Source: Candidatus Dadabacteria bacterium | Lineage (GTDB): Bacteria; Desulfobacterota_D; UBA1144; Nemesobacterales; Nemesobacteraceae | Assembly (NCBI GenBank): GCA_026706695.1 | Contig: JAPOYE010000016.1 | Coordinates: 6,191-70,190 of the forward strand | DNA length: 64,000 bases | Direction of reading: 5' to 3' | Shown: in pieces, positions 10,468 through 45,181 of the stretch | Position numbering within the stretch: position 1 is the stretch's first letter | Layout: every line of letters starts with the position of its first letter | Notes under the pieces: model-generated | What the model was told of the DNA's origin: nothing | Seen by the model: the letters and a program-made list of their open reading frames with translations, nothing else | Database searches by the model: none | Program-made: the position numbers and the translations under genes

Positions 10468-11511
10468 TCACTCGCTCCGTTCTGTTTCCCCCGCCGGAGC
10501 GACGACAGGGAAGTTTTCAAGCACGGAACAAAAATACCGCTTTTCAAGATCATATACGTCAAAAGCAAGTTCCGAGGCCCGCTCGAATCCCTCTCCGCAT
10601 GAAACGCTCTCGCTTATCTCCTTGAAAAGCATTCCCATGTCGTACCACTTCTGACCGATGCTGTTCATCTCGTCGGGAAGACCCGCCCCGTAAAAAGGGG
10701 AGAGCACCGGGGAGACCTCTTCCAGGAAATCCCTGTAAAACCACCTGAAAGCGGCGCCGCAGACCCCTCTTCTGCATATGACCTGGTAAGTAAACCTCGC
10801 GGTCCACTTCCAGTCGGCAAGGTCTCTCCAGCCGGGAAGATCCTCGGCCCACTTCCTTATAACCTCAACGCCTGAAGTTCCTCTCAGTGTGGTTCGGCCT
10901 TCAAGCATCATCTCGGCGTTTTTCCTTACGGCACCGAGAATCATCTCCTCAAGGTCGGCGCCACGTTCCATGGACTCCACTTCAACCCTGTTGTTTGAAA
11001 GAGGATACGGCCTGGCTTTTGAGCTTCTCGCTTTTGTCATATTCTCAAAAGAGACAGTCTGGAGCCCTTCAAACGAGTTGTCCGCTACGTAAAAGACGGA
11101 TTCGGAATCATCGTATCCGCATACCGCAATTACGTGTCCGGGGAAATGGGTCCTGGAGTCAAAATACTCAAGGTAGCGTATATCGGCCTGTATCAGTACC
11201 GGAATGTCTCTCTGAATAAATTCCTTGAGTTCAGCAGAGGCCCGTTCGTTGTCATCCTCATACTTCCAGTCGGCTATGTCAAGGCCGAAGTTCCTGAGGA
11301 AGTTAATCTCCATAAGAGGACCGCGAGGCTGTATAATCCTGCCCGGGTTCATCCCGTCCTCACAGGAGTAATAAAAACCGAGCCCCGCTCCAAGCCCGAA
11401 ACACATCTGCTCGGAAAAATCCTGTCCGTAGTAGATACAGATATCCCTGAGTGCCGCGGAACCGCAGTGCACTCCCTTTAAGTGTCTCCAGCCCTCTATT
11501 GTCTTTCTCAT
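10468..11511 (-). CDS. BtrH-N / C39-like papain-fold domain protein (DUF4872-type)
   Basis: N-terminal GVHCGSAALRD cysteine motif typical of the BtrH_N/peptidase C39-like fold, ~350 aa, no signal peptide. Confidence 0.45.
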   Translation of the reverse strand: MRKTIEGWRHLKGVHCGSAALRDICIYYGQDFSEQMCFGLGAGLGFYYSCEDGMNPGRIIQPRGPLMEINFLRNFGLDIADWKYEDDNERASAELKEFIQRDIPVLIQADIRYLEYFDSRTHFPGHVIAVCGYDDSESVFYVADNSFEGLQTVSFENMTKARSSKARPYPLSNNRVEVESMERGADLEEMILGAVRKNAEMMLEGRTTLRGTSGVEVIRKWAEDLPGWRDLADWKWTARFTYQVICRRGVCGAAFRWFYRDFLEEVSPVLSPFYGAGLPDEMNSIGQKWYDMGMLFKEISESVSCGEGFERASELAFDVYDLEKRYFCSVLENFPVVAPAGETERSE

Positions 11512-11883: not shown

Positions 11884-12876
11884 ATGAGATTACGTAATCT
11901 TTTTATGATTCTATTGTTATGCATGACAGTAGGAGTTTTTGGTGTGTCCTGCACCGGTGATGATGGAGCTCAGGGGCCACAGGGTGAGCAAGGGGAAAAG
12001 GGTGATCCCGGTGAAGTAACGGAAGGTGACCTACCGGAAGCGGTAGAAACCTATAGTTTTCTTGAAAGCTGGGGAGTTGCTGAGGGAGTTTCTTGCAGTA
12101 GCGATATACTGAGCACCGAAGCAGACCTCCCCGGACCTGATTTGGCAGATATTAGTGCTACCGGTCAGGGTAATCTTAGTAGGACCAATGACATAAATAA
12201 TGGTGTTAGTGCTACGTGTGCTGACAGTATTTTCGGCAATATTGTAGCTATGCAGAAAGGTGGAATCAACTTAGATGATCCTGCTCCAGCAGGTAATCAA
12301 ATTTATCTTTATAAAACCAGCCGGACAGAAAAATCTATAGTAGAGAAGGTGCCAACGGAGAAAACCGCTTTCTCTCTTGATATTCTAACCACCACCACAA
12401 AAGATATTGTCGGGGGTAAGGTTTATGCGAAGTTGGAAACTACTGGAGGGGATGAGGCCATTGAGCGTCAGCTTCTTCACTCCCAATGCACCAAAGGAAC
12501 GGATCCTCCGGATATTGTAGGAGATTTCCGGGCCGTCAAGATAGTAACGGCAGCACAAGAGTTTGTTAACAGTATGCCATGTACTGCCGGTACTAACTGT
12601 ACACCCGCGACAAAGACAACTACTAAATACAAGGTCTGTGTGAGGCTTGATGCTCATCCCGGTCAAGTTAAATGTCTTGTAGTGGATAAGGGTGTAACTC
12701 CTGATCCTACACCATCTGACGATAAAACCTTTATAGGTCTTTATGACGGTATGGATGTAAGTGATCAAGAAGTCGACATCACTGCCACTGTAAGTTCTGG
12801 TAATTTCTTTGGTGACACTGCTGCTGAAGTCGCAGGAGCCTATGCAGGTCTTTGTCATCTGTTCGGACTTGAATAA
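11884..12876 (+). CDS. Secreted or lipo-protein with a short collagen-like Gly-X-Y tract, Thr-rich
   Basis: Strong RBS AAGGAGGA 8 nt upstream. Signal peptide MRLRNLFMILLLCMTVGVFGVSC, followed by GDDGAQGPQGEQGEKGDPGEV (7 G-X-Y triplets). GC is lower than the flanking DNA. Confidence 0.7.
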   Translation: MRLRNLFMILLLCMTVGVFGVSCTGDDGAQGPQGEQGEKGDPGEVTEGDLPEAVETYSFLESWGVAEGVSCSSDILSTEADLPGPDLADISATGQGNLSRTNDINNGVSATCADSIFGNIVAMQKGGINLDDPAPAGNQIYLYKTSRTEKSIVEKVPTEKTAFSLDILTTTTKDIVGGKVYAKLETTGGDEAIERQLLHSQCTKGTDPPDIVGDFRAVKIVTAAQEFVNSMPCTAGTNCTPATKTTTKYKVCVRLDAHPGQVKCLVVDKGVTPDPTPSDDKTFIGLYDGMDVSDQEVDITATVSSGNFFGDTAAEVAGAYAGLCHLFGLE

Positions 12877-13113
12877 TCGACTAAATCCCATAAACGAAAA
12901 AGCTCCTAGTGGATTGTTTCCATAGAGACATCATCCATCATCGAACTAGCTGCTTTATCTTTGGGTAAAATCCCTCGGTAGGTTCTTCCGTAACTTCAGA
13001 CCTGCCGGGGGATTTTTTTATTTTGAAAACAAAATGTTTGGGAATAAACAGGATTGAGACCGTCTCTAAGGGGCAGTGAAATATCAAAAATCGAAAGACC
13101 AAAAAGCAGATTT

Positions 13114-13143
13114 AATGTTCCATAACTTCATTTATGGAACATT
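13114..13143. repeat. Hairpin element, copy 2 (inverted orientation of copy 1; 12-bp stem)
   Basis: AATGTTCCATAACTTCATTTATGGAACATT is the exact reverse complement of the core of copy 1. Confidence 0.8.
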
Positions 13144-13432
13144 AAACTCTTCCGCTCCAAAACCCTTCCTTATAAAACTACCACAAAAGACTTCAATATG
13201 TCAAGAACTTTAAAAAACCCTGTAGGAAGAATTGTATGAACATTCTACTTCTCAGAGCTATTGTAATCCGGCTTGCAGAAAAAGCAAGTTGTGTGAGAAG
13301 AAAATAGGAACAGGAATGACTGCAACAGAGACAAAACGGTTTCATGCTGGAAGCATATTCTGGTAACCTTTCTCAAGTGCTATAGTTGCTTTTTAGTCCA
13401 AGACGCCGTGTCGCCTGGATCAGCTGGTCACC

Positions 13433-14374
13433 ATGATTGAGAAAATCCTTAAAAATTCGAAAAAAGCTATTCTGCTCGGAATAGGAGGGGGAGGAGATAT
13501 AGTCGGAACCCTTCCGACGGCCAACCTGCTCGAGATAAACGGAACGCAATGCGTTCTGGGGGGACTCAGCTGGGAGCGTTTCACAATAGACCCCGATCCG
13601 GGGCCAAGAAAACTTGAAGAATCGCGCAACGTGCGCGAGATAAATGACGTGGTCTGGAAATGCAACAAAGATTCCACGACCCGAGGCGGAGCAAGGTTTG
13701 CCGAAGCAGGCATGGCCGAAGTTCTGGGAGAGGAAACTCTTCTTGTCGATATAAGTTACGGTCCGGAGAAGGTTTTTGAGGGAATAACGGACGCCGCCGA
13801 AAAACTCGGCGCGGATCTGGTGGTGGGAATAGACGTCGGCGGAGACGTGCTCGGGTTCGGAGACGAAAAGGGACTCATGAGTCCGCTTGCCGACGCCGTA
13901 ATGACCGCGGCGCTTTACAGACAGAGCTTCCGGATGCCCACCGTAATGGGAGTATTCGGCTTCGGAAGCGACGGAGAGCTCTCCAAGGAAGAGCTTGAGA
14001 GGTCATTCGGCATCATAGCGCGGAACAACGGAATTCTCGGCAGCTGGGGCATATCCGCAAACACACTGGAATTAATGGAAAAGGCGATAAGCGTAATACC
14101 CACCGAGGCGAGCAGAGGGCCAGTTGAATACGCAAGAGGAGCTTTCAGCCCCACTTCAATAAGAGGCGGCAGAAGAAAAGTCGAACTCGATATAAGTTCC
14201 ACAGTGACTTTCTACGTAGATCCCCGGGTGGTTTACGAAAAGGTTTCAGGACCCGCGCAAGCGGTCTGCGGATGCAGAACGATAGGGGAGGCAAACGCAA
14301 AACTTAACGAAGCGGGAATCAGAACGGAACTTGATATTGAGATGGAACTTTACGAAAATCCCGGGAAAAACTGA
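13433..14374 (+). CDS. Hypothetical protein with N-terminal GIGGGGD motif (possibly DUF1152-like)
   Basis: 313 aa, Gly-rich N-terminal motif LLGIGGGGDIVG, no TM or signal peptide. The family assignment is from memory only. Confidence 0.35.
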   Translation: MIEKILKNSKKAILLGIGGGGDIVGTLPTANLLEINGTQCVLGGLSWERFTIDPDPGPRKLEESRNVREINDVVWKCNKDSTTRGGARFAEAGMAEVLGEETLLVDISYGPEKVFEGITDAAEKLGADLVVGIDVGGDVLGFGDEKGLMSPLADAVMTAALYRQSFRMPTVMGVFGFGSDGELSKEELERSFGIIARNNGILGSWGISANTLELMEKAISVIPTEASRGPVEYARGAFSPTSIRGGRRKVELDISSTVTFYVDPRVVYEKVSGPAQAVCGCRTIGEANAKLNEAGIRTELDIEMELYENPGKN

Positions 14375-34252: not shown

Positions 34253-35209
34253 TTGAACTCTTCGCTAGGATCGTTTATTTTTGAAGTCGTGGAAAACGTG
34301 ATCAATTACTTCAGGGGATACCACGACGCATATCAAACGCAGATAGAAAACCTCCTGCTGTCGATTCTGATAATTGTTGTCCTGCTATTCCTGAGAAAGG
34401 TTCTCATCTCTCTCATAACCAAGAACACAAAAGATCCCAAGACAGTCTATTACTCAAAACGCATTGTCGGGTACTCCTACGTTTTTCTCGCCATAGTGCT
34501 GGTCGGCAGCGTGTGGATAAGCGGACTGGGTCAGGTAGGAGCCTATCTGGGTATAGCAAGCGCCGGCCTGGCCATAGCGCTTCATGAAACCTTAGCCAAC
34601 ATCGCGGGCTGGTTCTTCATACTCTGGAGAAAGCCCTTCACGATAGGGGACCGCATACAGATAGGAGAAACCAAGGGTGACGTAATAGACCTGAGGCTGT
34701 TTCAGTTCAGCCTGATCGAGATCGGGAACTGGGTTGAAGCGGAGCAGAGTACAGGCAGGGTCATACACGTTCCCAACAGCCACGTGCTCAGAGAAAAAAC
34801 CGCGAATTATCACGGCGGGTTCAACTACATATGGAACGAGATACAGGTTCTCATAACGTTTGAGAGCGACTGGAGAAAAACCCGCGAGATCCTGGAGAGA
34901 ATAGCGAGAGAAGAAAATAAAACTTCTCCGGAACAGGCTGAGGAACAACTCCGCGCGGTCGCCGAAAAGTACATGATACATTTGCCGAACCTCACCCCGA
35001 TGGTTTACATGTCGACAAGGGACAGCGGAGTGCTTTTCTCGATCAGATACACGACAAACCCGAGAAAAAGAAGAGGCTCGGAGCAGGCCATCTGGGCAGC
35101 CATACTCGCCGAGTTCGAAAAGCATCCGGACATAGATCTCGCTTACCCGACAACGCGCTTCTATTCCCTCTCGTCCGGAAGCCCCGACGGAGAAGACCCC
35201 GATTCATAA
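34253..35209 (+). CDS. Small-conductance mechanosensitive channel (MscS family)
   Basis: TM helices followed by the MscS beta-domain motif GDRIQIGETKGDVIDLRLFQFSLIE. Confidence 0.8.
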   Translation: MNSSLGSFIFEVVENVINYFRGYHDAYQTQIENLLLSILIIVVLLFLRKVLISLITKNTKDPKTVYYSKRIVGYSYVFLAIVLVGSVWISGLGQVGAYLGIASAGLAIALHETLANIAGWFFILWRKPFTIGDRIQIGETKGDVIDLRLFQFSLIEIGNWVEAEQSTGRVIHVPNSHVLREKTANYHGGFNYIWNEIQVLITFESDWRKTREILERIAREENKTSPEQAEEQLRAVAEKYMIHLPNLTPMVYMSTRDSGVLFSIRYTTNPRKRRGSEQAIWAAILAEFEKHPDIDLAYPTTRFYSLSSGSPDGEDPDS

Positions 35210-35253
35210 ACCTGGGCGAAGCAGGTTCCCCGCTACCTGCCTTCGGAAAAATC

Positions 35254-37899
35254 TTATTCGGGCTTCAGGATTGAAACCGCCGCCGCAGCGGGATTTATGT
35301 ACTTCCTTGCCACCCTCGCCACGTCGTCCGCTGTGACGGAAAGAATTTTCTCCGGGAACCTCCTGTACTCGTACGCGCCTATTCCGTAAAGCTCGTCAAA
35401 CCCGACTATTGACGCCTGAGCGGAGTTTCTCTGAAGCCCTATCTCGAAACTTCCCACAATATAGTTCTTCGCCCTCTCAAGCTCCTCCTCCCCGACACCC
35501 TTCAAGACAAGCTGGAGCTGTTCCTTTATCGCTCCGAGCGCCTCCTCCTGCTTCTGCGGAGCAGTTCCTATATAAACACCGAAATAGCCCCCTTCCATCC
35601 CGGGAACATAGAACGAGGTAACGGCGTAAGCAAGGCTTTTCTTGTCCCGAAGCTCGATGAAGAGTCTTCCTCCCTGACCTGAGAGCACCGAATTCAGCAC
35701 CTCAAACGCGTAGCGGTCCCGGCTTTTAAAACCAGGGGCGTGATAGCCCGCGATAATATGGGTCTGGGCCTTGTCTCTTTCAAGCTCGACGGTTTCCCTC
35801 GCAGAAGAAAGCGCGGACTCACGGGGCGGCCGGGTCTTTTCGAAACCTCCCCGCTTCATGCCGCCGAACAGCTTTTCAAGAACGCCAAGAGTTTTCTCCG
35901 CGTCAATGTCGCCCGCAACGGAGATGACCATGTTCTCGGGTCTTATGACTTTCTCGTAGAACCCGCGTACATCGGCCGAGGTAAACCTGTCTACGTTTTC
36001 CTCGGTTCCAAGAACGTTGAACCTGTAGGGATGCTTAAGGAAAAGGGTCCTCAGAAAGTTCCTGACCGCCTTTCCCGTGAGATTGTCCTCCTGCTTTTCC
36101 AAAGCGGCCAGAATTTCTCTTCTCTCCCTCTCCATTTCCTCATCGGAAAAAGAAGGATCAAGTATCACGTCCGAGAAAATATCCATCGCCCCTTCAAAGC
36201 TCTCACTCAATGCCGAGAGAGTCACCCCGACGCTGTTTTTCCCCGAGAAGCCGTCAACCGTTCCCCCGAGCCCTTCTATCTGGGCGGCTATATCTTCTGC
36301 GGAGCGGTTCGAGGTGCCGCGGGTGAACATCCCGGACATGAAGTTCGAAATCCCGTTCGTGTTCTCGTCCTCATACCTGAGGCCGCCCAGAAACGCCGCG
36401 TGAACGGAGAAAAGCGGAACGGCCGGATTGCGTTTCAGAAGAACCCGGATTTCGTTTGAAAGCTCGTATCTTTTAAATTCCGCCTGCGCCTGAGAAGCCT
36501 TTTTCCTTTCTTTTTTCTGGGCCCCTCCGGGAAAAACAAGGGCCTCTCTGAAGCCCTTCTCAACCCCCTTGGCTTTGTCTTCCGGAAGCAGCGCTCCCGC
36601 GGTGAGATTTTTCTGCACGAGGTATTCTCCGGCTACCCGCAATATGTCCTCCGGGGCAACATTCCTCACCCTCTCAAGGTAGAGGCGTTCGTAGCCGTAA
36701 TCTCCGGTTTCAAGCTCGAAGTAACCAAGCTTTCTCGCCTGTCCCTGCATGGTCTCCTTGGCGCGGATGAAGTCCCTTTCTATGTTAGTCTTGGCGCGGG
36801 CAAGCTCCTCGGCCCCGACGGGTTCGGTCTTTATAAGCTCTATCTCCGCCACTATCTCCTCTGAGGCTTTTTCAACCTTGCCGGGGTCAAGAACTCCGCC
36901 CACGAGGAAAAGGCCGTTCTCCTTGAGGCTGTAAGCGTAGGCGTATATGTCGTTTACGGTGGCGTTCTGCTCCTTCAGTCTTCTGTAAAGCCTGGAGCTC
37001 TCCCCGCTGCCGAGTATGCCGCTTATAACGTCAAGAACCGGAGTGTCGGCGTGGCTCGCCGAGGGAGTATGGAAGGCAAAACTGAAGTAGCCCGTGTTTA
37101 CGTCGCGGCCGATAACGAAGGTTCTCGTGCGTTTCTGCTCGGGCTCCGGGGGAAGTTCGCACCGAGGAGTTTTTCTTTTCTTTATTTTTCCGAAAGTCCG
37201 GGCCACCTCGTCCTTTATTCCCTCGGGATCAAAATCCCCGACCACAACGAGAATCATGTTGTCCGGGGAATACCACTTTCTGTAGAAATCAAGTATCCCG
37301 TCTCTGGTGAAGCTCCCCACGCTCTGCTTGGTTCCTATTATGGGCCTTCCGTAGGGATGAACGCTGTAGGCCGTGGAGAAAAGCTTCTGGCTGAGCACCC
37401 TTGAGGGAGAGTCCTCTCCCCTTCTTATCTCTTCCTGGACAACCTCAAGTTCCCGCTCAAGCTCCCCGGGGTCAAAAGTCGAGTTCTCCATGACGTCCGA
37501 GAGCAGGTCAAGAGCCACGGGCAGGAAGCGCCGCGCGCTTACGATGTAGTAAACCGTCTCGTCAAAGGAAGTAAACGCGTTTATGTCTCCGCCTCCCGCC
37601 TCGACCATCCCGGCTATCTCGCCGACCCGTCTTTTCTCCGTCCCCTTGAAAAGCATGTGTTCGTGCACGTGCGCGAGGCCGTACTCGCCCTCCACCTCGC
37701 ACGCGCTTCCGGTCTTCACCCACACGTTAACGGCGACGACCGGGGAAGAGTCGTTTCTCTCAAGAAGCACGGTCATGCCGTTAGAAAGACTGTACTTGGT
37801 TACTCCACTGACACCCGCAAGGGTCTGCGCACCTGAATTCATAAGACTTGCTCCCGTAATCAGAATGAACAAAAAAAGTAATTTGAAAACCCCTCTCAT
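35254..37899 (-). CDS. Secreted M16-family zinc peptidase (tandem M16 units, PqqL-like)
   Basis: Signal peptide, inverted zincin motif HVHEHMLFKGT (HxxEH), and 881 aa comprising two M16 repeats. Confidence 0.85.
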   Translation of the reverse strand: MRGVFKLLFLFILITGASLMNSGAQTLAGVSGVTKYSLSNGMTVLLERNDSSPVVAVNVWVKTGSACEVEGEYGLAHVHEHMLFKGTEKRRVGEIAGMVEAGGGDINAFTSFDETVYYIVSARRFLPVALDLLSDVMENSTFDPGELERELEVVQEEIRRGEDSPSRVLSQKLFSTAYSVHPYGRPIIGTKQSVGSFTRDGILDFYRKWYSPDNMILVVVGDFDPEGIKDEVARTFGKIKKRKTPRCELPPEPEQKRTRTFVIGRDVNTGYFSFAFHTPSASHADTPVLDVISGILGSGESSRLYRRLKEQNATVNDIYAYAYSLKENGLFLVGGVLDPGKVEKASEEIVAEIELIKTEPVGAEELARAKTNIERDFIRAKETMQGQARKLGYFELETGDYGYERLYLERVRNVAPEDILRVAGEYLVQKNLTAGALLPEDKAKGVEKGFREALVFPGGAQKKERKKASQAQAEFKRYELSNEIRVLLKRNPAVPLFSVHAAFLGGLRYEDENTNGISNFMSGMFTRGTSNRSAEDIAAQIEGLGGTVDGFSGKNSVGVTLSALSESFEGAMDIFSDVILDPSFSDEEMERERREILAALEKQEDNLTGKAVRNFLRTLFLKHPYRFNVLGTEENVDRFTSADVRGFYEKVIRPENMVISVAGDIDAEKTLGVLEKLFGGMKRGGFEKTRPPRESALSSARETVELERDKAQTHIIAGYHAPGFKSRDRYAFEVLNSVLSGQGGRLFIELRDKKSLAYAVTSFYVPGMEGGYFGVYIGTAPQKQEEALGAIKEQLQLVLKGVGEEELERAKNYIVGSFEIGLQRNSAQASIVGFDELYGIGAYEYRRFPEKILSVTADDVARVARKYINPAAAAVSILKPE

Positions 37900-37926
37900 C
37901 GACTCAGGCCTCCTGAGGAAAAACCC

Positions 37927-38760
37927 CTAGGACTCGTCGCCGGCCAGGGCTTCTGACTCTTTGTCCCGCGATGCAACCTTCGCGGCCAGTTTCCAGGCGC
38001 AACGTCCGAGATCAAGGACAAAATAACAGTAAGTTATAACGACCGCGACCACCCCGGGATTGGTAATAAGCGCCGCAATTATGATGGAGCCCGCGACAAG
38101 AGTGCTGAAAGGTCCGAATCTGGCGATTCGCGGAAACTTCCTGTACGGAACCTCGCTGACCATGACAAGTCCCACAACAGGAATGAAGAAAAGATAAAAA
38201 GATTTCATAAGTGGCGAAGCAATGATCTGAAACTCGGAGAGAAGGAGTATCGGAGAGAGAATAAGTCCCGCGGCCATAGGACTCGGAAGACCCGTGAACA
38301 TGCGCTTTTCCTTGGTCGCAAACTGTACGTTAAAACGCGCAAGCCTGAGCGCTGCGCAGACCACGTAGAAAAGCATCGCCATCAGTCCCGGATTTCCATA
38401 TTCCGAAAGCCCCCAAACGTAAAGAAGCACTGCCGGGGCGACCCCGAACGATACAAGATCGCAGAGCGAATCATAGGACGCACCGAAGCGGCTCTCCGAG
38501 TTAAGAGCTCTTGCTATCCTGCCGTCAAGCATGTCGACAAGTACCGCCATGCCGATAAATCCCGCTGCCCACCAGAAACGGTTAAAAAGCCATTCCTCAG
38601 AAACTGCGGCTGAGGCACGGTCCCCGTGGATGGAAATCGAAGTCACTATGGACGCAAGTCCGAACGCAAGGCCCACGGTTGTGAGCATGCTTGGCAGCAG
38701 GGGGATGACTCTCCCCGGACGGGGAGACCTCCTTCTTCTTTTTTTTCTCAAGTTAGCCAC
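37927..38760 (-). CDS. pssA: CDP-diacylglycerol--serine O-phosphatidyltransferase (CDP-alcohol phosphatidyltransferase family)
   Basis: D-x2-DG-x2-AR...G-x3-D-x3-D motif (DMLDGRIARALN...GASYDSLCD). Lies immediately upstream of psd. Confidence 0.75.
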   Translation of the reverse strand: MANLRKKRRRRSPRPGRVIPLLPSMLTTVGLAFGLASIVTSISIHGDRASAAVSEEWLFNRFWWAAGFIGMAVLVDMLDGRIARALNSESRFGASYDSLCDLVSFGVAPAVLLYVWGLSEYGNPGLMAMLFYVVCAALRLARFNVQFATKEKRMFTGLPSPMAAGLILSPILLLSEFQIIASPLMKSFYLFFIPVVGLVMVSEVPYRKFPRIARFGPFSTLVAGSIIIAALITNPGVVAVVITYCYFVLDLGRCAWKLAAKVASRDKESEALAGDES

Positions 38761-39398
38761 GCTATAACCGTCCTGCCGGCCACGACTTTCTGCCCTACCT
38801 CAACACCCACCTTCACATCCTCGGGCAGGTAAATATCCAACCTTGAACCAAACTTTATAATCCCGAATTTTTCCCCGATTTCCAATACGTCGCCGAATTT
38901 CGCACGTGATACGATTCTTCTCGCGAGAAAACCAGCCACCTGGACTATAACCACCTGGACTCCGCCCTCGCACTCAATCAGGGTCGCGAGCCGCTCGTTG
39001 GCCTCGGATGAATCACCCCTAAAAGCCATTTTGAATTCCCCGGGGCAGTAAGTGGTTCCGACTACCTTGCCCGAAACGGGAAATCTGTTTATATGGCAGT
39101 CGAAAATAGAGAGAAAAATGCTTATTCTTCGGGTGTTCCGCTTGAGATAATCGTCTTCAAACGTCTCCGAGATGTCTATTATTTTCCCGTCTGCGGGACA
39201 GATCACGGAACCGGGTTCAAGCGGAGGAAGTTCCCTTTCAGGATCCCTGAAGAAAAAGACGAAAAAAGCGGTGAGCAGAAGAAATACTAAAGATAAAGAG
39301 AGAGAACCCAGAAGCGCGGAGAGAATACAAAGCGCGGCTGAAACGTAAATTATACCGAGCCCCTCGCTTGCGACCCTCACAAATCGGAAATTCATCAA
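38748..39398 (-). CDS. psd: Phosphatidylserine decarboxylase family protein (short form)
   Basis: 216 aa with an N-terminal TM and a proenzyme-type C-terminus. Operon context with pssA. Confidence 0.65.
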
Positions 39399-40411
39399 TT
39401 CTTGTCTTTATCGACCAGTTTCTTCTGGAAAAGCGAGCTCATCATCCCCCTGAGCTCTGCGCCGACTTTTTCGATCGGATGCTCTTCACCCTGCCTGAGA
39501 AGCGCGTTATAGGAAGGCCTTCCAGCCTGATTCTCAAGTATCCATTCCGAGGCGAACTGTCCGGACTGAATCTCCCCGATTATCTTTTTCATCTCCTGTT
39601 TCACGGAGTCGTTTATAAGCCTCGGGCCCCTGGTTATGTCTCCGTACTTGGCCGTATCGCTCACCGAGTAGCGCATGTTGGCTATCCCGCCCTCGTATAT
39701 GAGGTCAACTATAAGCTTGACTTCGTGGCAGCACTCGAAATAAGCCATCTCGGGCGGATAACCGGCTTCAACAAGCGTCTCGTATCCCGCCAGGATAAGG
39801 GCCGTGAGCCCTCCGCACAGAACTGACTGTTCCCCGAAAAGATCGGTTTCCGTCTCGTCCTTGAAAGTCGTCTCTATAACTCCCGCCCTTGAACACCCGA
39901 TGGCTCTGGCGTAAGCAAGAGCGAGATCCTTGGCGTCGCCCGTCGGGTTCTGGTGAACGGCTACGAGTCCCGGCACACCGGCACCCCCGACATACTGGTC
40001 CCTTACCGTGTGGCCCGGGGCCTTGGGAGCGACCATGAACACGTCCACGCCCGCAGACGGTCTGATCTGTCCGTAGTGAATATTAAAACCGTGACTGAAC
40101 ATAAGCGCGTTTCCGGCAACTAGGTTCTTTTCGACATGCTCATGGTATATCGCCGGCTGGTAAGTGTCTGGAGCCAGCATAACCGCTATGTCCGCGGACT
40201 TGGAAGCGGCGGAAACCGACTTCACGTTAAAACCGGCCTCCTTGGCCTTTTTCCAGTTGGGACTGTCCTTAATGTCCGCGACCGTGACCGAGACTCCGCT
40301 TTCCCTCAGGTTCTGGGCATGGGCGTGACCCTGGCTTCCGTAGCCTATGATCGCAATCTTCTTTTTCTTAAGCTTGGACGGATCAATGTCATCATCGTAG
40401 TAAACTTTCAC
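39395..40411 (-). CDS. ilvC: Ketol-acid reductoisomerase
   Basis: [21 protein letters not shown] Rossmann motif, 338 aa. Confidence 0.95.
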
Positions 40412-40426
40412 CGGTTATATCCTCCT

Positions 40427-40921
40427 TTACTTGCTCTTCTTGTTCGCCCGGGACATGGCGACGGTTCCCGTTCTCGCGATTTCCTTTATCCCGAAAGGTC
40501 GTTGAAGTTCAACAAACGCCTGAATCTTCTGTTCATCCCCGGTAACCTCGAACGTGTAGGACCTTGGAGACACGTCGACGACCTTGGCCCGGAATATGTC
40601 GGCGATTCGCAGAATTTCCGGCTTGGAATCGGCCTTCGCGTCGACCTTGACGAGAATCATCTCTCTTTCCACGCGGTCAAGTTCTGTCATGTCGACAACC
40701 TTGATCACGTTGACCATGTTGTTGAACCTTTTGATTATCTGCTGAATTATGGCTTCATCGCCGGTTGTGACCAGAGTTATTCTGGACGTCCCCGGTTCCT
40801 GGGTTTCCGCGACGTTAAGACTCTCTATGTTAAAATCCCTGGCGCTGAAAAGCCCCGCGATTCTTGAGAGTACTCCGGCTTCATTGTCTACCGTTATGGA
40901 TATCGTGTGTCTCGATTTCAT
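40427..40921 (-). CDS. ilvN: Acetolactate synthase small (regulatory) subunit
   Basis: ACT-domain N-terminus HTISITVDNEAGVLSRIAGLFSARDFNIESL, 164 aa. Confidence 0.9.
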   Translation of the reverse strand: MKSRHTISITVDNEAGVLSRIAGLFSARDFNIESLNVAETQEPGTSRITLVTTGDEAIIQQIIKRFNNMVNVIKVVDMTELDRVEREMILVKVDAKADSKPEILRIADIFRAKVVDVSPRSYTFEVTGDEQKIQAFVELQRPFGIKEIARTGTVAMSRANKKSK

Positions 40922-41121
40922 GGAACCTCCAGAATGGTGAAAAAATTATAAAGATCGTGATTATACCGAATCTCCTGTAAATGTTAATATCCCGGTGATA
41001 AACCACCAAGATGATCTCACTCTAGATGAAACAATGGCTTTATAATATCGACAGAGGGTTTTAGCTGTGAAACAAAGTACCCGTTTAACAAGGAACACAA
41101 ACAGTGACTACCAACACCAAC

Positions 41122-41328
41122 TCATCCCACTGAATCGTTTAGATTTTGTTTCTGAATGATCGTTAATGAAGCCGTATCAGTATTCCATTCACTATACTGT
41201 TTGTGAACAACTTTAGTTTTTTCAGGCAGAAAAGGAGCAATTCTTTTTAAGATATCCTTATATTTCTTCTCAGCGTTGGACAGCTTTCTCAATTTTTCTC
41301 TTGGTATAATATTTTGCTTTTCTTTCAT
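41122..41328 (-). CDS. Small Lys-rich hypothetical protein in an AT-rich island
   Basis: 68 aa ORF (MKEKQNIIPREKLRKL...) whose ATG lies 2 nt after the stop of the preceding protease gene. GC is ~35%. Confidence 0.35.
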   Translation of the reverse strand: MKEKQNIIPREKLRKLSNAEKKYKDILKRIAPFLPEKTKVVHKQYSEWNTDTASLTIIQKQNLNDSVG

Positions 41329-41329
41329 T

Positions 41330-42220
41330 TTACACACCACCTGCCGCAACAAAAAAACTGGAGTTCTTGCTCTCAATCAGTTTTGATGTTGACGTAGTAG
41401 ATAACAGGTTGTTTATTCTATAGTACAACTCATAAATTTGGGACCACGTATCATCCTTAAGAGGTTTGATTTCAACATTTAAACCACATTTTTTTACTTC
41501 CTCCGCATAAATAGCACGCCCATGGGACTTAACTTTTTTCGGCGTAAGAAAATTCTTGATTTTCCTTCTTATTAACGCTTCACCCATACTGGACATCATA
41601 CCTGATTTTAGAGCTTGTATACTGATATCTTCTGACAAACCTAAAGCACTTCTGTGTTCTTCAATGTCGCGAGCGTCATAATTTTGCAATTGTTGCAAAT
41701 AGGGTTCTAAATTCCCTTCTTCTTGAATTGCACCACGGAATAAATCTTCATAGCTTTTAATCAAATTGTAGACCGAATAAACCTTTGTTGAATTGCCTTG
41801 AGTGAGTTGAATTTGCGGGTCTACCGGCCCCAGTTCTGATGTTGAATCCATTAAAATTTTGGATGACCCCAAACATATCATGGTTGCGGCAGATTTTGCT
41901 TTGCCTGCAACAATCGAAAGGTACTCGCCAGTACCACTATATTCTCTTAGTATCTGGATGATTCTTTCCGCGGCCAAAGCATAACCACCGGGGGAATTGA
42001 TGAATAATGCAACGCCTTTTTCCAGAGACATAGGGCGTAACAAGTCTTCAAGCATTATTGCGTCTCCGTCATCTATGAGCACATCATGAACGAAGCTTGT
42101 ACAATATGAAACAATCGGTCTGCCTAATTTTTCTTCGATGGAATTATAAAGTTCTCTGCGAGTAGCAATCCCTTGATTTTGTTCTTCCTTAACCTTAATA
42201 AAAGTTGTTTTGCCAGACAT
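41330..42220 (-). CDS. ClpP/crotonase-fold serine protease of the SDH (serine dehydrogenase proteinase)/SppA-like type
   Basis: INSPGGYALAAERI and GKAKSAATMICLGS motifs (Ser nucleophile in a GxxxSAAT context), 296 aa, no signal peptide, ~35% GC. Confidence 0.55.
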   Translation of the reverse strand: MSGKTTFIKVKEEQNQGIATRRELYNSIEEKLGRPIVSYCTSFVHDVLIDDGDAIMLEDLLRPMSLEKGVALFINSPGGYALAAERIIQILREYSGTGEYLSIVAGKAKSAATMICLGSSKILMDSTSELGPVDPQIQLTQGNSTKVYSVYNLIKSYEDLFRGAIQEEGNLEPYLQQLQNYDARDIEEHRSALGLSEDISIQALKSGMMSSMGEALIRRKIKNFLTPKKVKSHGRAIYAEEVKKCGLNVEIKPLKDDTWSQIYELYYRINNLLSTTSTSKLIESKNSSFFVAAGGV

Positions 42221-42257
42221 AGTTTGGAGAATAATAATGCTAAATGGTTAAAACACA

Positions 42258-42292
42258 ATAGAGAAAACGGGTCCACTTCTTATTGTCACCCG
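42258..42292 (-). terminator. Putative intrinsic terminator after grxD
   Basis: On the minus strand, AACGGGT-(15 nt)-ACCCGTT hairpin followed by a T-rich run. Confidence 0.35.
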
Positions 42293-42338
42293 TTAAGTGT
42301 AGTCCACCGTTATCTGAACAAAGCTAACCGCTCCCTTC

Positions 42339-42659
42339 TCAGTCTCCGGCGTCTCCCTTAAAAATTCCCTCCAGCTCCCCGTTTGCGTGCATTTCGGTAC
42401 ATATGTCGCATCCGCCTATGAAGCTTCCGTTAACGTAGAGTTGTGGAAGCGTCGGCCACTGGGAGTAGTCCTTTATCCCCTGGCGGATCTCCTGGTCCAG
42501 AAGGACATCGACGGTAGCATAATCCACACCGTAATAGTTAAGAATATTGACCACCTGCGCTGAGAAACCACACTTGGGGGCATCCTTTGACCCCTTCATG
42601 TAGAGAATAACGGGGTTCTGCGCTATCTGGCCCTCTATTTTTTTCTGTATATCCGACAT
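42339..42659 (-). CDS. grxD: Monothiol glutaredoxin (Grx4 family)
   Basis: CGFS active site (PKCGFSAQV), 106 aa. Confidence 0.9.
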   Translation of the reverse strand: MSDIQKKIEGQIAQNPVILYMKGSKDAPKCGFSAQVVNILNYYGVDYATVDVLLDQEIRQGIKDYSQWPTLPQLYVNGSFIGGCDICTEMHANGELEGIFKGDAGD

Positions 42660-42670
42660 TGCACCACTCC

Positions 42671-42910
42671 TTAGTTATTAAGCTTCTCCCACTGCTCAGG
42701 CGTGTAGGTCTTCATCGAGATTGCGTGTATCTCAGATTCCATGGCGTCTCCAAGAGCTGCATAGACAAGTTTGTGACGCTCAATCGGAGGCTTGCCCGTA
42801 AACCGCTCGGATACGATGACCGCCTGGAAATGCGTTCCGTCCCCCGTGACCTCAACAAATGAAGTCGGGATGCCCTGCTCTATCATTTCACGAATCCGCT
42901 GCGTTTCCAT
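42671..42910 (-). CDS. bolA: BolA family protein
   Basis: 79 aa BolA fold signature, upstream partner of grxD. Confidence 0.8.
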   Translation of the reverse strand: METQRIREMIEQGIPTSFVEVTGDGTHFQAVIVSERFTGKPPIERHKLVYAALGDAMESEIHAISMKTYTPEQWEKLNN

Positions 42911-43123
42911 TACAGCGGGGAATTATATACGCATACAACCACGTTTCCAAGGGAAAAAAGGAGCATGCTGATCTCAGTAGCAAGGGAATCCCACTCAAAT
43001 CGGCCGCTTGGAACTTACGCGATCACGCTTGCGGACTCAGTTCATAGCAAGAAAAGGATTCTTGAAAAAAATTCCCGGCCGTTTATTTTAAAATGTGCTT
43101 GGAAAAGGAGGTTCCGACGCGCC

Positions 43124-43498
43124 ATCATGAAGAGTTTCGGGGTGTCAAAGGAAAAGCAGACGGCACTTGAGCTTGAAATGAAGTGCCTCGGCATAAGGGA
43201 AGAGGATATTGAGGAAACCTTCACGAGATCTTCAGGGCCCGGCGGACAGAACGTAAACAAGCTCGCCACCTGCGTTCACCTGAGGCACCGGCCAAGCGGC
43301 ATCGCCGTAAAAATCTCAAGGGAACGCTCACAAGCACTTAACAGGTTCCTTGCGAGGAGGATTCTCGCCGGGAAAATCGCGACGCAGATTCACGGAGAGG
43401 ATTCTGTGGAAGCAAAAAAGGCTCAGAAAGCCAGAAAACAGAAGAAAAGAAGAAAGAGAAAGACGGCGAGAAAGCTTGCTGGAGAACCTCAGGAATAA
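43124..43498 (+). CDS. arfB: Peptidyl-tRNA hydrolase ArfB-like ribosome rescue factor (RF-1 GGQ domain)
   Basis: GGQ motif SSGPGGQNVNK and a basic C-terminal tail (KKAQKARKQKKRRKRKTARK). The start is placed at MKSFGVSKEK. Confidence 0.75.
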   Translation: MMKSFGVSKEKQTALELEMKCLGIREEDIEETFTRSSGPGGQNVNKLATCVHLRHRPSGIAVKISRERSQALNRFLARRILAGKIATQIHGEDSVEAKKAQKARKQKKRRKRKTARKLAGEPQE

Positions 43499-43511
43499 CC
43501 GGGAAGGATTT

Positions 43512-44066
43512 ATGAAAAAGGATCTTTTGCCGAAAAACAGAACTGAACCTCAAAAAACGAAAAACGCTTTCGCCGGAGTGAGGAGTGAACTGTCAGCACT
43601 GCTTATGGCTGCGGCACTGCTTCTGCTCCCGGGCGTCGGAGCGGCTCAAGCCGAAACGCTAGAGGGCAGACCTTACGTAACGGACGCCGACACGGTCAGG
43701 ATATCAGGAGAGAGAATCAGGCTTGAGGGTATTGACGCCCCCGAGACAAACCAGAGATGCAAGGACGCCTCCGGGAAAAGCTACCGCTGCGGTCTTGTCT
43801 CGACCTCGGCACTGAAAACCAGGATAGGAGGCGAGACAATCAGATGCGAAGGCACGCAGCGCGACCGTTACGGGCGTCTGCTCGGCATCTGTTATCTGGG
43901 CGACATTGACCTAAACGGCTGGCTTGTAAGAAACGGCTACGCGCTTGCCTACAGACGCTACTCGAAGCGTTATGTACCGCAGGAAATCCAGGCGCAGAAA
44001 GACAGTCTCGGGCTCTGGGCCGGTGAATTCATGCCTCCTTGGCAGTGGCGCAAGAATACGCGCTAA
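43512..44066 (+). CDS. Secreted thermonuclease (SNase-like)
   Basis: Signal peptide and SNase motifs (DGDTVRI-like ADTVRISGERIRLEGIDAPE, YGRLLG). Confidence 0.8.
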   Translation: MKKDLLPKNRTEPQKTKNAFAGVRSELSALLMAAALLLLPGVGAAQAETLEGRPYVTDADTVRISGERIRLEGIDAPETNQRCKDASGKSYRCGLVSTSALKTRIGGETIRCEGTQRDRYGRLLGICYLGDIDLNGWLVRNGYALAYRRYSKRYVPQEIQAQKDSLGLWAGEFMPPWQWRKNTR

Positions 44067-44130
44067 GCAACTGCCCATGGCAAATAGACAGGTTACGTAA
44101 AGCTTATCCCAAAGGCCGTCAGCTTAATCC

Positions 44131-44474
44131 TTACCGGAACTGTCGTAACTTCTCTTCTGTAAGCAAAACCTTGGCAGACTTGTCGATATGAGCTTTCAAG
44201 GGCGGATATTCCACCAGGTTGTAGCCCACAAGATCAACCTTGTAAGGAAGACTGCTTTCATGAAAACATGCCCACAGACGGTCAACCGTACGCTCCTCGA
44301 TATCGCCGTAAAGAACCATGTCTATATCAGAACAGCTTCGGTGAGACCCCGTTGCCCTTGAACCAAAGATTGATACACAAAGATTGATACAGACTCAACG
44401 GCGGGGGCAAACTCCGTTATGATGCTCCCGATCAGATTCACCTGTTTTTCACTCAGTCCATGGTCAGCCATCAT
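44131..44474 (-). pseudogene. MNT-type nucleotidyltransferase (HEPN-MNT antitoxin-like), disrupted by a 14-bp tandem duplication
   Basis: Two adjacent ORFs (72 and 62 aa). Removing one copy of CAAAGATTGATACA (44364-44391) restores a single frame reading ...SIFGSRATGSHRSCSDIDMVLYGD..., the GS-x10-DxD nucleotidyltransferase motif. Confidence 0.7.
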
Positions 44475-44895
44475 TAATCTCCATATAAGCCTCGGACAAT
44501 TTCTCGTACAGCCCGCCGATACAGTCAAGGTATCTTGCATGTATTTGCTCTATCACAGCTTCGAACTTTTTAAAATCATAGGTGCGACTCAGCTTGTTGT
44601 GCGCGTCAAGTGCGCTCATCCAGCCTTCTCCGCCTGATACTAAATTTCCCGCTATAGATTCCTTTAAGACTGCCCTGGGGGTGACTTGACCGAATACCAT
44701 GTTCTGACTCTCAAGATAGTCCTTCATCGTCTTCCAGGCAAGTTCAATACAGAGTTCAAACCGCTTGATCATGCCTTCTTTTGCGAGCTGGTCCAGTTCC
44801 CCGGCCTTGTCTCTCTCCACGGCCTCTCTCAGCAGAAAATAAGGCCGGCTGAAATTGTCGAACCTGTATTGCCATCTCTTTTTTTCAGAACTCAT
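44464..44895 (-). CDS. HEPN-domain protein (HI0074-type nucleotidyltransferase substrate-binding protein)
   Basis: ~143 aa KNTase-C/HEPN-like protein immediately upstream of, and overlapping, the MNT gene. Confidence 0.65.
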   Translation of the reverse strand: MSSEKKRWQYRFDNFSRPYFLLREAVERDKAGELDQLAKEGMIKRFELCIELAWKTMKDYLESQNMVFGQVTPRAVLKESIAGNLVSGGEGWMSALDAHNKLSRTYDFKKFEAVIEQIHARYLDCIGGLYEKLSEAYMEINDG

Positions 44896-45181
44896 GACAA
44901 ACCAACCCTCAAAGCGCAACTACGAGAAAACCTGAGCCGCCTGATGGGGCTTCCTGAAGCCAAGTAACCCATTTCTTCTACCATAAATTTTACCGATAGC
45001 GACAACGGATTAAAATCCTGAATCCCCGGGCAGAGCCCGCGAAAACAGCCGCAGCCCGTGGACCGGGAAATTCGTCGCGCCCTGAAGCTTGCGAAAAGGA
45101 AAATGGTCGACGAATACTTCCCCACACTGAGGTCAGCAGAGAAATGTTGAAAAACCGGGAGTTCGTGTCAATCTTACTTTC

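Follow-up and report, generated by a model that had tools for sequence, protein, structure and literature searches.

A mobile two-gene cassette between grxD and ilvN of a Candidatus Dadabacteria genome pairs a predicted ClpP-fold serine protease with a small basic protein and may act as a toxin-antitoxin-like module

In a stretch of 64,000 nucleotides from a Candidatus Dadabacteria bacterium (GenBank assembly GCA_026706695.1, contig JAPOYE010000016.1, positions 6,191 to 70,190 of the forward strand; hereafter the window), the housekeeping genes grxD and ilvN are separated by two minus-strand genes of strikingly low guanine-cytosine (GC) content, one encoding a predicted 296-aa serine protease and the other a 68-aa Lys-rich protein, and the locus raises the question of where this pair came from and what the two proteins do to each other. 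An original prediction, made from the letters of the window, had described the patch as an insertion and likened it to a horizontally acquired addiction or defence module. The comparisons reported herein indicate that the pair is, as far as sequences can tell, a self-contained mobile two-gene cassette acquired horizontally by one Candidatus Dadabacteria lineage. The function that we favor, at a probability of roughly 0.45, is that of a module akin to toxin-antitoxin or abortive-infection systems, the small protein of which would hold back the protease.

The gene order on the minus strand was bolA (42910..42671), grxD (42659..42339), the 296-aa open reading frame (ORF), the 68-aa ORF, a 200-bp gap and ilvN (40921..40427), followed by ilvC, psd and pssA. 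Pfam identified ilvN (ALS_ss_C, E = 9.5e-33) and grxD (Glutaredoxin, E = 2.8e-21), with bolA also flanking, and thereby bore out the predicted placement; the two predicted ORFs, the smaller of which contains 12 Lys and 3 Arg, likewise stood, and the stop and start codons said to be 2 nt apart are separated by one base in the junction TAA-A-ATG, so that this statement was essentially right. The GC content was 38.0% in 41100-42340, and likewise in the insertion as delimited below, against 52.1% and 50.4% in the flanks and 51.1% in the whole window, and the patch is the minimum among all 1.34-kb stretches of the 64 kb. The direction of the predicted shift was correct, whereas its size (35% against 56%) had been exaggerated. 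An Rfam scan of 40400-43000 returned only a chance match to mir-338 (E = 0.24), and a protein identical to the window protease is present in NCBI, named as from a Candidatus Dadabacteria metagenome-assembled genome.

Relatives lacking the insert at this site were plentiful. The ilvN gene was used to fetch 80 loci, one genome per GTDB species, in which bolA, grxD, the protease and the small ORF were then located, and the 32 species keeping the bolA-grxD-ilvN order (ilvN 89-100% identical) were taken as the syntenic set. The spacer between grxD and ilvN was just 101-135 bp, that is, an empty site, in 28 of these 32 species, and the low-GC patch is therefore an insertion rather than a chance fluctuation of composition. 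The orthologous intervals thus lack the insert in most relatives, as the original prediction had proposed to check, and the opposite picture, the same genes with native GC at the same position in all of them, did not appear. Megablast of the surrounding 12.5 kb (82-91% identity) placed the breakpoints between 40993 and 40994 and between 42334 and 42335-38 in more than 25 relatives, with which a multiple alignment agreed. These synteny breakpoints, together with the spacer length in relatives and the GC content, delimit an inserted segment of 1,341 bp (40994..42334, no strand assigned). The predicted insert of ~1.1 kb was hence too short, the true one reaching ~100 bp further toward ilvN, while ~1.1 kb does fit the conserved core (42253-41119) described below.

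The occurrence of the pair elsewhere was examined in loci gathered by exact-protein look-ups, a metagenome scan (80 loci) and a viral-contig scan, which together gave an incompletely de-replicated census of 97 loci from several bacterial phyla and Methanocella. In every locus with sufficient downstream sequence, the protease was followed on the same strand by a homologous small ORF (48-76 aa; 136 aa in one version), which in most cases starts at -4 (ATGA overlap) or -1, counted from the end of the protease stop codon. Both genes were intact in 90 loci, the protease was disrupted and the small ORF intact in 6, and 1 was too short; an intact protease without the small ORF occurred in none, and the apparent exceptions L148 and L159 also carry it. 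All-versus-all clustering of the ORFs within 4 kb in about 89 loci returned the small ORF as the sole recurrent neighbor (81 loci), the next family reaching 6 loci that appear to be related genomes sharing one insertion site. These observations suggested that the protease and the small gene form what is, by all signs in the census and the clustering, an obligate and translationally coupled unit, and the two-gene layout seen in the original prediction is thus real. In L159 (1317-1530), the protease stop is immediately followed, in the same frame, by the small ORF with no canonical start nearby, which may reflect read-through, a fusion or a non-canonical start. A third conserved gene, for which a 66-69-aa ORF upstream of the protease in L006 and L009 had been considered, was rejected, as the clustering showed no recurrent family besides the small ORF.

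The unit was equally well delimited at the DNA level. Homology between the window and three copies at other Dadabacteria sites (L095, L097 and L098; 85-87% identity) extends only over 42253-41119, that is, the two genes plus ~33 nt upstream, and that to L001-L005 runs from 42268 to 41182; the core shared between copies at different sites is ~1,135 bp long. The upstream part holds a conserved leader (42221..42258, minus strand), delimited by alignment, with the promoter-like elements TTGTGT (42258-42253) and TATTAT (42236-42231) separated by a 16-nt spacer, 10 nt to the ATG and no Shine-Dalgarno sequence. This block is kept between unrelated sites (the window, L087, L095, L098, L004 and L005), and its elements score below the threshold of the consensus scan; the block may serve as a promoter, and a short-leader or leaderless protease transcript may reasonably be inferred.

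The carriers named in the databases include Dadabacteria, Thermodesulfobacteriota, Chloroflexi, Armatimonadetes, Planctomycetota and WOR-3 as well as the archaea Methanocella arvoryzae, M. conradii and Candidatus Argoarchaeum. Identity to the window protease is 56% for the copy in Methanocella and spans 52-60% among relatives from several bacterial phyla and Methanocella. Presence of the cassette is very patchy, also between species whose flanks share 85-91% nucleotide identity, and the GC content of the cassette is below that of its flanks in all 24 loci with long flanks (median difference 9.7 points). Taken together, the empty site in 28 of 32 species, the presence of the cassette at other Dadabacteria sites, the relatives in other phyla and in Methanocella, and the low GC in 24 of 24 loci strongly support the view, already held in the original prediction, that the cassette was acquired horizontally.

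Comparison with L087, the closest relative carrying the cassette, pointed to a recent event. The protease gene is 99.2% and the small ORF 96.6% identical between the two, against 91.7% for ilvN/ilvC/psd and about 88-92% for the flanking housekeeping genes in 35003-40921 (grxD 95%), and the 3' tail of the insertion, at 90.4%, is at background divergence. Because the protease gene so exceeds its flanks in identity, these values suggest that the coding core may have been exchanged or homogenized more recently than the hosts of the window and L087 diverged. A 225-bp fragment of a protease gene in L095 (1108-1331) matches window 41648-41424 at 85% identity and represents what is left of another copy; it lies ~1.8 kb upstream of the intact cassette, beside a PIN/MazE pair.

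As for how the cassette moves, the limits of the insertion gave few clues. Its boundaries run from a few bases after the grxD stop codon to just upstream of the intact host ilvN promoter (40960..40987, minus strand; TTAACA, a 16-nt spacer and TATAAT, 11 of 12 consensus positions), which is context outside the cassette and is kept in empty and filled sites alike in the multiple alignment. A 1.3-kb foreign cassette can accordingly settle between an upstream stop codon and a downstream promoter without disrupting either gene, which is a lesson for annotation. The 5' non-coding part of the insertion (42259..42334, minus strand) lies outside the homology to L095, L097 and L098, and the 3' non-coding tail (40994..41121, minus strand), with no recognizable terminator, is common only to L087 and, in part, to the remnant in L033. 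At the insertion ends, no terminal inverted repeats, target-site duplication or terminator rose above chance, and no recombinase gene was found among the ORFs of the insertion. A transposon, insertion sequence (IS) or integron cassette was rejected as the vehicle in the absence of terminal inverted repeats, direct repeats and a recombinase and with inter-copy homology stopping at the gene borders. An integron attC vehicle, suggested by GTTAAAC in the 3' tail, was rejected as well, with attC judged by eye and cassettes elsewhere sharing no sequence past the stop codon.

The grxD-ilvN site itself was found to be receptive. Its four occupied cases carry differing inserts, namely the same cassette as in the window (L087), a cassette remnant with the last ~51 protease codons and an intact small ORF (L033, 5380-6000), an ISAs1-type transposase (DDE_Tnp_1_assoc) with a DruA-like protein (L032, 800-3010), and an unrelated 108-aa ORF with a DUF7689 fragment (L029, 5380-6000), and the spacer is therefore a small insertion hotspot.

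The surroundings of the copies at other sites were mixed. Fragments of IS1595 adjoin the cassette in L001-L005, SIR2_2/DUF4020 in L005, an N6_N4 methyltransferase and HATPase_c_4 in L006, a cluster of restriction, Schlafen-like, toxin-antitoxin, IS21 and integrase genes in L009, VapBC, UvrD and Eco57I in L095, NYN, IS3 and IS110 in L098, and an NTP_transf_2 gene in L201, while plain housekeeping genes surround it in the window, L007, L011 and L197. When 115 flanking ORFs taken from 21 loci were compared with Pfam and PADLOC, most likewise proved to be housekeeping genes, with a minority of IS1595, IstB, PIN, HATPase_c_4, type III restriction enzyme, TnpB-like and GajB-like genes. The neighborhood of defence islands or prophages envisaged in the original prediction was thus borne out in part: a minority of IS, toxin-antitoxin, restriction-modification and defence genes is present, but most neighbors are housekeeping genes and close viral relatives are few.

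Such surroundings bear on a reading without any conflict role, in which the two proteins would be an accessory proteolysis pair, a niche housekeeping or stress protease with its adaptor or chaperone, the mobility of which is incidental. Many copies are indeed inserted singly amid housekeeping genes, selection on both genes is purifying as described below, and no known defence model matches them. On the other hand, the very patchy distribution, the consistently foreign GC content, the pseudogenized protease in ~6% of loci, the recurrence of IS, toxin-antitoxin and restriction-modification neighbors, and the spread over bacteria and archaea are features of selfish or conflict genes, and on their account we regard a mere accessory pair as rather unlikely.

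The larger gene (41330..42220, minus strand) is intact and encodes a predicted SDH-type ClpP-fold serine protease of 296 aa, as judged from the ORF, Pfam, PHROG, AlphaFold2/Foldseek and the family alignment. The protein, which contains GKAKSAATMICLG, scored 49.5 bits against the Pfam family SDH_protease (PF01972), above the gathering score of 31.3 (E = 3.9e-13), so that the profile search proposed with the original prediction came out in its favor. The alignment is limited to residues 49-140, corresponding to profile positions 75-162 of 286, and a full-length match was obtained only with phrog_11747, a family of unknown function (2.6e-36), which is also the best model for this subfamily, to which the C-terminal half (residues 150-296) is specific. 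The cassette protease therefore shares with PF01972 the gathering-score match and the predicted ClpP/crotonase fold, may also share the Ser/Asp/His order, and differs from it in the short aligned region, in the subfamily-specific C-terminal half and in missing the cut-off of the NCBIfam equivalog NF047768 Clp_like_SDH (52.1 against 250 bits). A HMMER search of 1.84 billion cluster representatives, with clusters counted at 50% identity, returned 92 clusters at E ≤ 1e-30, 599 at E ≤ 1e-10 and 2,588 at E ≤ 1e-3.

Better-known families of this fold did not accommodate the protein. The match to Pfam CLP_protease was borderline (20.3 against 20.2 bits, residues 65-121 only), the NCBIfam ClpP subfamilies gave 15 bits against cut-offs of 228-249, and no Clp ATPase gene is adjacent; the scores for SppA/peptidase S49 (TIGR00706, SppA_dom) and NfeD1b_N were 25 against 155 and 20.8 against 40 bits, respectively. 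The outcome that the original prediction had named as speaking against it, a match to a housekeeping SppA paralogue devoid of mobile context, did not occur. The N-terminus MSGKTTFIKVKEEQ, read directly, has no signal-peptide or transmembrane character, and no solved structure was matched by sequence.

An AlphaFold2 model built with 26 relatives in the alignment reached a predicted local distance difference test score (pLDDT) of 90.1 and a predicted template modeling score (pTM) of 0.89, and its top Foldseek matches in the PDB were ClpP, the stomatin-specific NfeD protease 1510-N and SppA (probability 1.00), with target-normalized TM-scores of ~0.6 for ClpP and SppA and only ~0.37 for 1510-N. 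The predicted structure is accordingly one of ClpP/crotonase type. Invariant among the 26 family members were SPGG (76-79), KAKSAA (107-112, including Ser110), Asp134 in ELGxxDPQ, Asp182, and Lys231-x-His233-Gly-Arg235, and Asp134 takes the place of the catalytic His that ClpP has ~25 residues past the Ser. On our own reading of these motifs, Ser110, Asp134 and His233, the last of which falls outside the Pfam-aligned region, are the putative catalytic residues, in the Ser-Asp-His order that names the SDH family.

Weak partial matches of the protease to the head-maturation families phrog_53, phrog_1684 and NF045542 raised the possibility of a decayed phage remnant, with a prohead maturation protease and a fragment of scaffold. 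These matches, however, span ~65-95 residues around the active-site Ser, that to NF045542 reaching 35 bits against a cut-off of 120, and the full-length PHROG match is to the family of unknown function, the phage members of which stand in accessory positions rather than in the head module. Since, in addition, no portal or capsid genes lie beside any copy, none is recurrent in the ~89 loci, and the pair is under purifying selection, we consider such an origin highly improbable.

More distant relatives, which are 24-29% identical along their full length, belong to the accessory genes of mobile elements and pass the SDH_protease threshold where tested; INPHARED phages hold relatives at this level only. 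One is flanked by the late regulator and the lysis genes in a Mu-like Shewanella phage, one comes after the tail genes of Gordonia phage BeeGee, others adjoin HicAB in Porphyromonas prophages, and one adjoins integrase and excisionase genes on a P. aeruginosa plasmid. On the Phenylobacterium plasmid NZ_CP101284.1 (L200:435-3792), a relative of 27-29% identity is the last gene after those for multiubiquitin, E2, ThiF-type E1 and DUF6527, and on the Rhizobium plasmid NZ_CP032687.1 (L199:421-3711) a relative of the same identity again comes last, with only multiubiquitin and ThiF listed in an incomplete annotation. No small partner was seen next to the distant relatives as far as these were examined. 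The gene sets resemble the Bub (6E/DUF6527) operons, for which BubA-E were defined and an antiphage role was proposed (PMC11601596), and in the searched text of that paper a ClpP-like protease is not mentioned. The likeness to our subject is that distant SDH_protease homologues come right after Bub-like gene sets; the window cassette differs in having no Ubl, E1, E2 or DUF6527 genes. This link of the distant paralogues suggests that conflict systems of prokaryotes may have drawn on this family repeatedly as a proteolytic effector.

The smaller gene (41122..41328, minus strand; ATG at 41328) is coupled to the protease gene and encodes a basic 68-aa protein with a predicted helix and a disordered tail bearing a PF...(S/T)xxxW motif, a description drawn from the junction, the homologues, the alignment, the ratio of nonsynonymous to synonymous substitution rates (dN/dS) and AlphaFold2. 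Pfam, NCBIfam, PHROGs and PADLOC offered no family for it, and a match to AdoHcyase (E = 0.046) was dismissed as noise. The 74 unique sequences follow a common plan of four elements, namely an N-terminus that varies and is rich in Lys/Arg, a helix (K/R)RLxxAKxxFxKMxEEI, an invariant Pro with Phe/Tyr and then a basic patch after it, and (Y/H)STxG(E/Q)W, with P32 and W48 invariant in the alignment; the third and fourth elements are PFLPEK and QYSEW in the window copy. AlphaFold2 with 66 sequences predicted one helix confidently (residues 10-33, pLDDT 93-97) and the remainder, Trp motif included, with low confidence, and the protein is highly charged with no hydrophobic segment. In these predictions it looks like a peptide that folds on a partner and not like an enzyme or a DNA-binding domain. 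The dN/dS of the small gene was 0.07-0.19 and that of the protease gene 0.05-0.08, which indicated purifying selection on both; in sequence, the small protein has diverged faster, with family-wide identities of 13-43% where the protease shows 52-60%.

A partner of this kind could also be what the protease acts on. In that case the small protein would be a substrate or latent effector from which site-specific cleavage releases an active fragment, a logic known from prokaryotic immunity, where Pepco and EACC1 are paired with trypsin- or caspase-type proteases (PMC12642450), and from stomatin with NfeD 1510-N. The structural matches of our protease include 1510-N, which shares an operon with its own substrate, and SppA with bound C-termini; the conserved motif in the disordered tail is a plausible cleavage or recognition site; and the two genes are strictly co-inherited. 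However, a charged single-helix protein with no hydrophobic segment is unlikely to form pores, the protease carries no sensor domain, unlike those of the known modules (PMC12642450), and loci keeping the small gene after loss of the protease would retain a useless pro-effector. We therefore judge this arrangement rather unlikely.

Loss of the protease was observed repeatedly. The gene was broken, and the small ORF uninterrupted, at six independent loci (L033, L087, MRE50, L117, L127 and L177), or ~6% of loci, and the reverse case of an intact protease with a broken or absent small gene was not found among the 97. The loss occurred by deletion in L033 and through nonsense codons at conserved positions in L117, L127 and L177, and in L087 (OZ242379.1, 5253-5255) the change of CAA to TAA at codon 179 (Q179*), for which a sequencing error is possible, cuts the protein to 178 aa beside an intact small ORF. 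In the cultured archaeon Methanocella arvoryzae MRE50 (L195:3751-6162, AM114193.2), an ISL3 transposase gene splits the protease right after KAKSAAT; the C-terminal 181-aa protease ORF is 100% identical to the intact copy at the same site on the metagenome contig L196, and the 53-aa small ORF is intact.

This pattern is as expected if the protease is costly or toxic and the small protein harmless or protective, and it argues against the small protein being a toxin, both of which it does in a suggestive manner only. A reversal of roles, with the small Lys-rich protein as the toxin and the protease as an antitoxin that degrades it, could draw on the fact that small basic proteins can be toxic, on proteolysis being in principle a way to neutralize a toxin, and on the order of the genes, neutralizer first and toxin second being the common one in toxin-antitoxin pairs. 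Six protease-null loci with an intact small gene, among them the very recent ISL3 event in MRE50, should nevertheless be lethal if such a toxin were still expressed, and we hold this reversal to be very unlikely.

We thus return to the reading in which the small protein curbs the protease. In such a module, the first gene would provide a cytoplasmic SDH-type ClpP-fold serine protease and the second, translated by coupling to the first, a basic protein of 53-76 aa with an amphipathic helix and a disordered tail bearing PF...STxGxW. Made in step with the protease, the small protein would bind it, probably folding on it via the helix and the Trp motif, and would keep it inactive or narrowly targeted; once translation shut-off, phage infection or loss of the element, for instance, had removed or titrated the small protein, the released protease would attack proteins of the cell or of an invader. 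What favors this reading is the combination of a foreign mobile cassette, obligate coupling, an apparently active protease, a partner resembling a binding peptide and frequent loss of the protease. We infer, rather than observe, the binding, the inhibition and toxicity of the protease, the trigger and the benefit to the host, and with them the label of addiction or defence module given in the original prediction.

Several points weigh against this reading. The asymmetry of the losses is not significant, as the protease gene is 4.3 times longer (P = 0.81^6 = about 0.28), and premature stops in metagenome assemblies could be sequencing errors. Pfam, NCBIfam and AlphaFold2 gave no DNA-binding domain in the small protein, so that autoregulation of the classical type II kind is unsupported, and the order of a large first and a small second gene is the less common one in type II toxin-antitoxin pairs. 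No PADLOC model matches the cassette. The association with defence islands is weak, with mostly housekeeping neighbors, few viral relatives and no clear enrichment among the 115 flanking ORFs, and of the 16 matches in IMG/VR only 2 were close (47-52% identity), both cut by contig ends.

Comparison with described systems brought out likenesses and differences. It resembles type II toxin-antitoxin systems in its compact coupled operon of two genes, its small and partly disordered partner, its patchy horizontal distribution, its occurrence either as a solitary insertion or within mobile-element-rich islands, and a decay that leaves the small gene behind; it differs in the ClpP-fold protease as putative toxin, in a small protein devoid of a DNA-binding domain and in the large gene coming first. 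To our knowledge, a ClpP-fold protease is not a described toxin class. The protease-effector immune modules with Pepco, EACC1 and metallo-beta-lactamase (MBL) or alpha/beta-hydrolase partners employ trypsin- or caspase-type proteases with fused sensors, and none with ClpP, SDH or S49 proteases is described there (PMC12642450). With these the cassette shares a protease tightly linked to a small uncharacterized protein and, for some copies, a conflict-gene context, and from them it differs in having a ClpP/SDH rather than trypsin or caspase fold, no fused sensor, and a helical, charged partner that is neither a beta-barrel nor a pore former. NfeD (1510-N) with stomatin and SppA gave the top structural matches, and 1510-N is encoded together with the protein that it cleaves; the cassette protease differs in lacking membrane segments, in having a partner that is not an SPFH protein and in a likely Ser-Asp-His instead of Ser-Lys arrangement. 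No partner protein for SDH_protease was described in the Pfam and NCBIfam entries returned or in the literature searched. The statement of the original prediction that the pair is not a named system also held, since neither cassette protein matched any PADLOC-DB v2.0.0 family at E up to 1 and full-text literature searches for the family or the pair found nothing relevant.

Our more specific proposal, which is tentative and somewhat doubtful as a whole, is that the cassette represents an undescribed class of toxin-antitoxin or abortive-infection system, in which an SDH-type ClpP-fold effector would be curbed by a ~60-aa inhibitor folding upon binding, all within ~1.1 kb, maybe leaderless, moving between bacterial phyla and methanogenic archaea, and with distant paralogues apparently recruited as terminal genes of Bub-like operons. 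Should the small protein indeed gate the protease, the toxin-antitoxin and defence repertoire would gain a new effector chemistry, that of a self-compartmentalizing-type serine protease, and a function would be assigned to the SDH_protease/phrog_11747 family (~600 clusters at E up to 1e-10), which currently has none. As the pair is small, needs no other genes and occurs in both Bacteria and Archaea, it should be easy to test by heterologous expression, and a natural protease-null allele is available in the cultured M. arvoryzae MRE50.

A few further observations concern the surroundings of the locus in the window. No gene for the large subunit, ilvB, lies upstream of ilvN and ilvC; ilvN is served in this clade by a conserved promoter of its own immediately behind grxD, and grxD is absent at this position in more distant Dadabacteria. 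On the other side, the region beside bolA (42950-45023) is also variable among relatives, and most genomes do not align to it by megablast. It encodes an RF-1-domain (ArfB-like) protein (42965-43498), a staphylococcal-nuclease homologue (43350-44066) and a HEPN-type NTase_sub_bind protein (44464-44919), and the short ORFs at 44322-44540 and 44131-44319 may be a split nucleotidyltransferase partner, for which Pfam gave no confirmation. The second-lowest GC patch of the window (12151-13500, 41.8%) overlaps a 330-aa ORF with no Pfam family (11884-12876) and adjoins genes for a DUF1152 protein (13433-14374) and a BtrH_N/DUF4872 protein (10468-11511).

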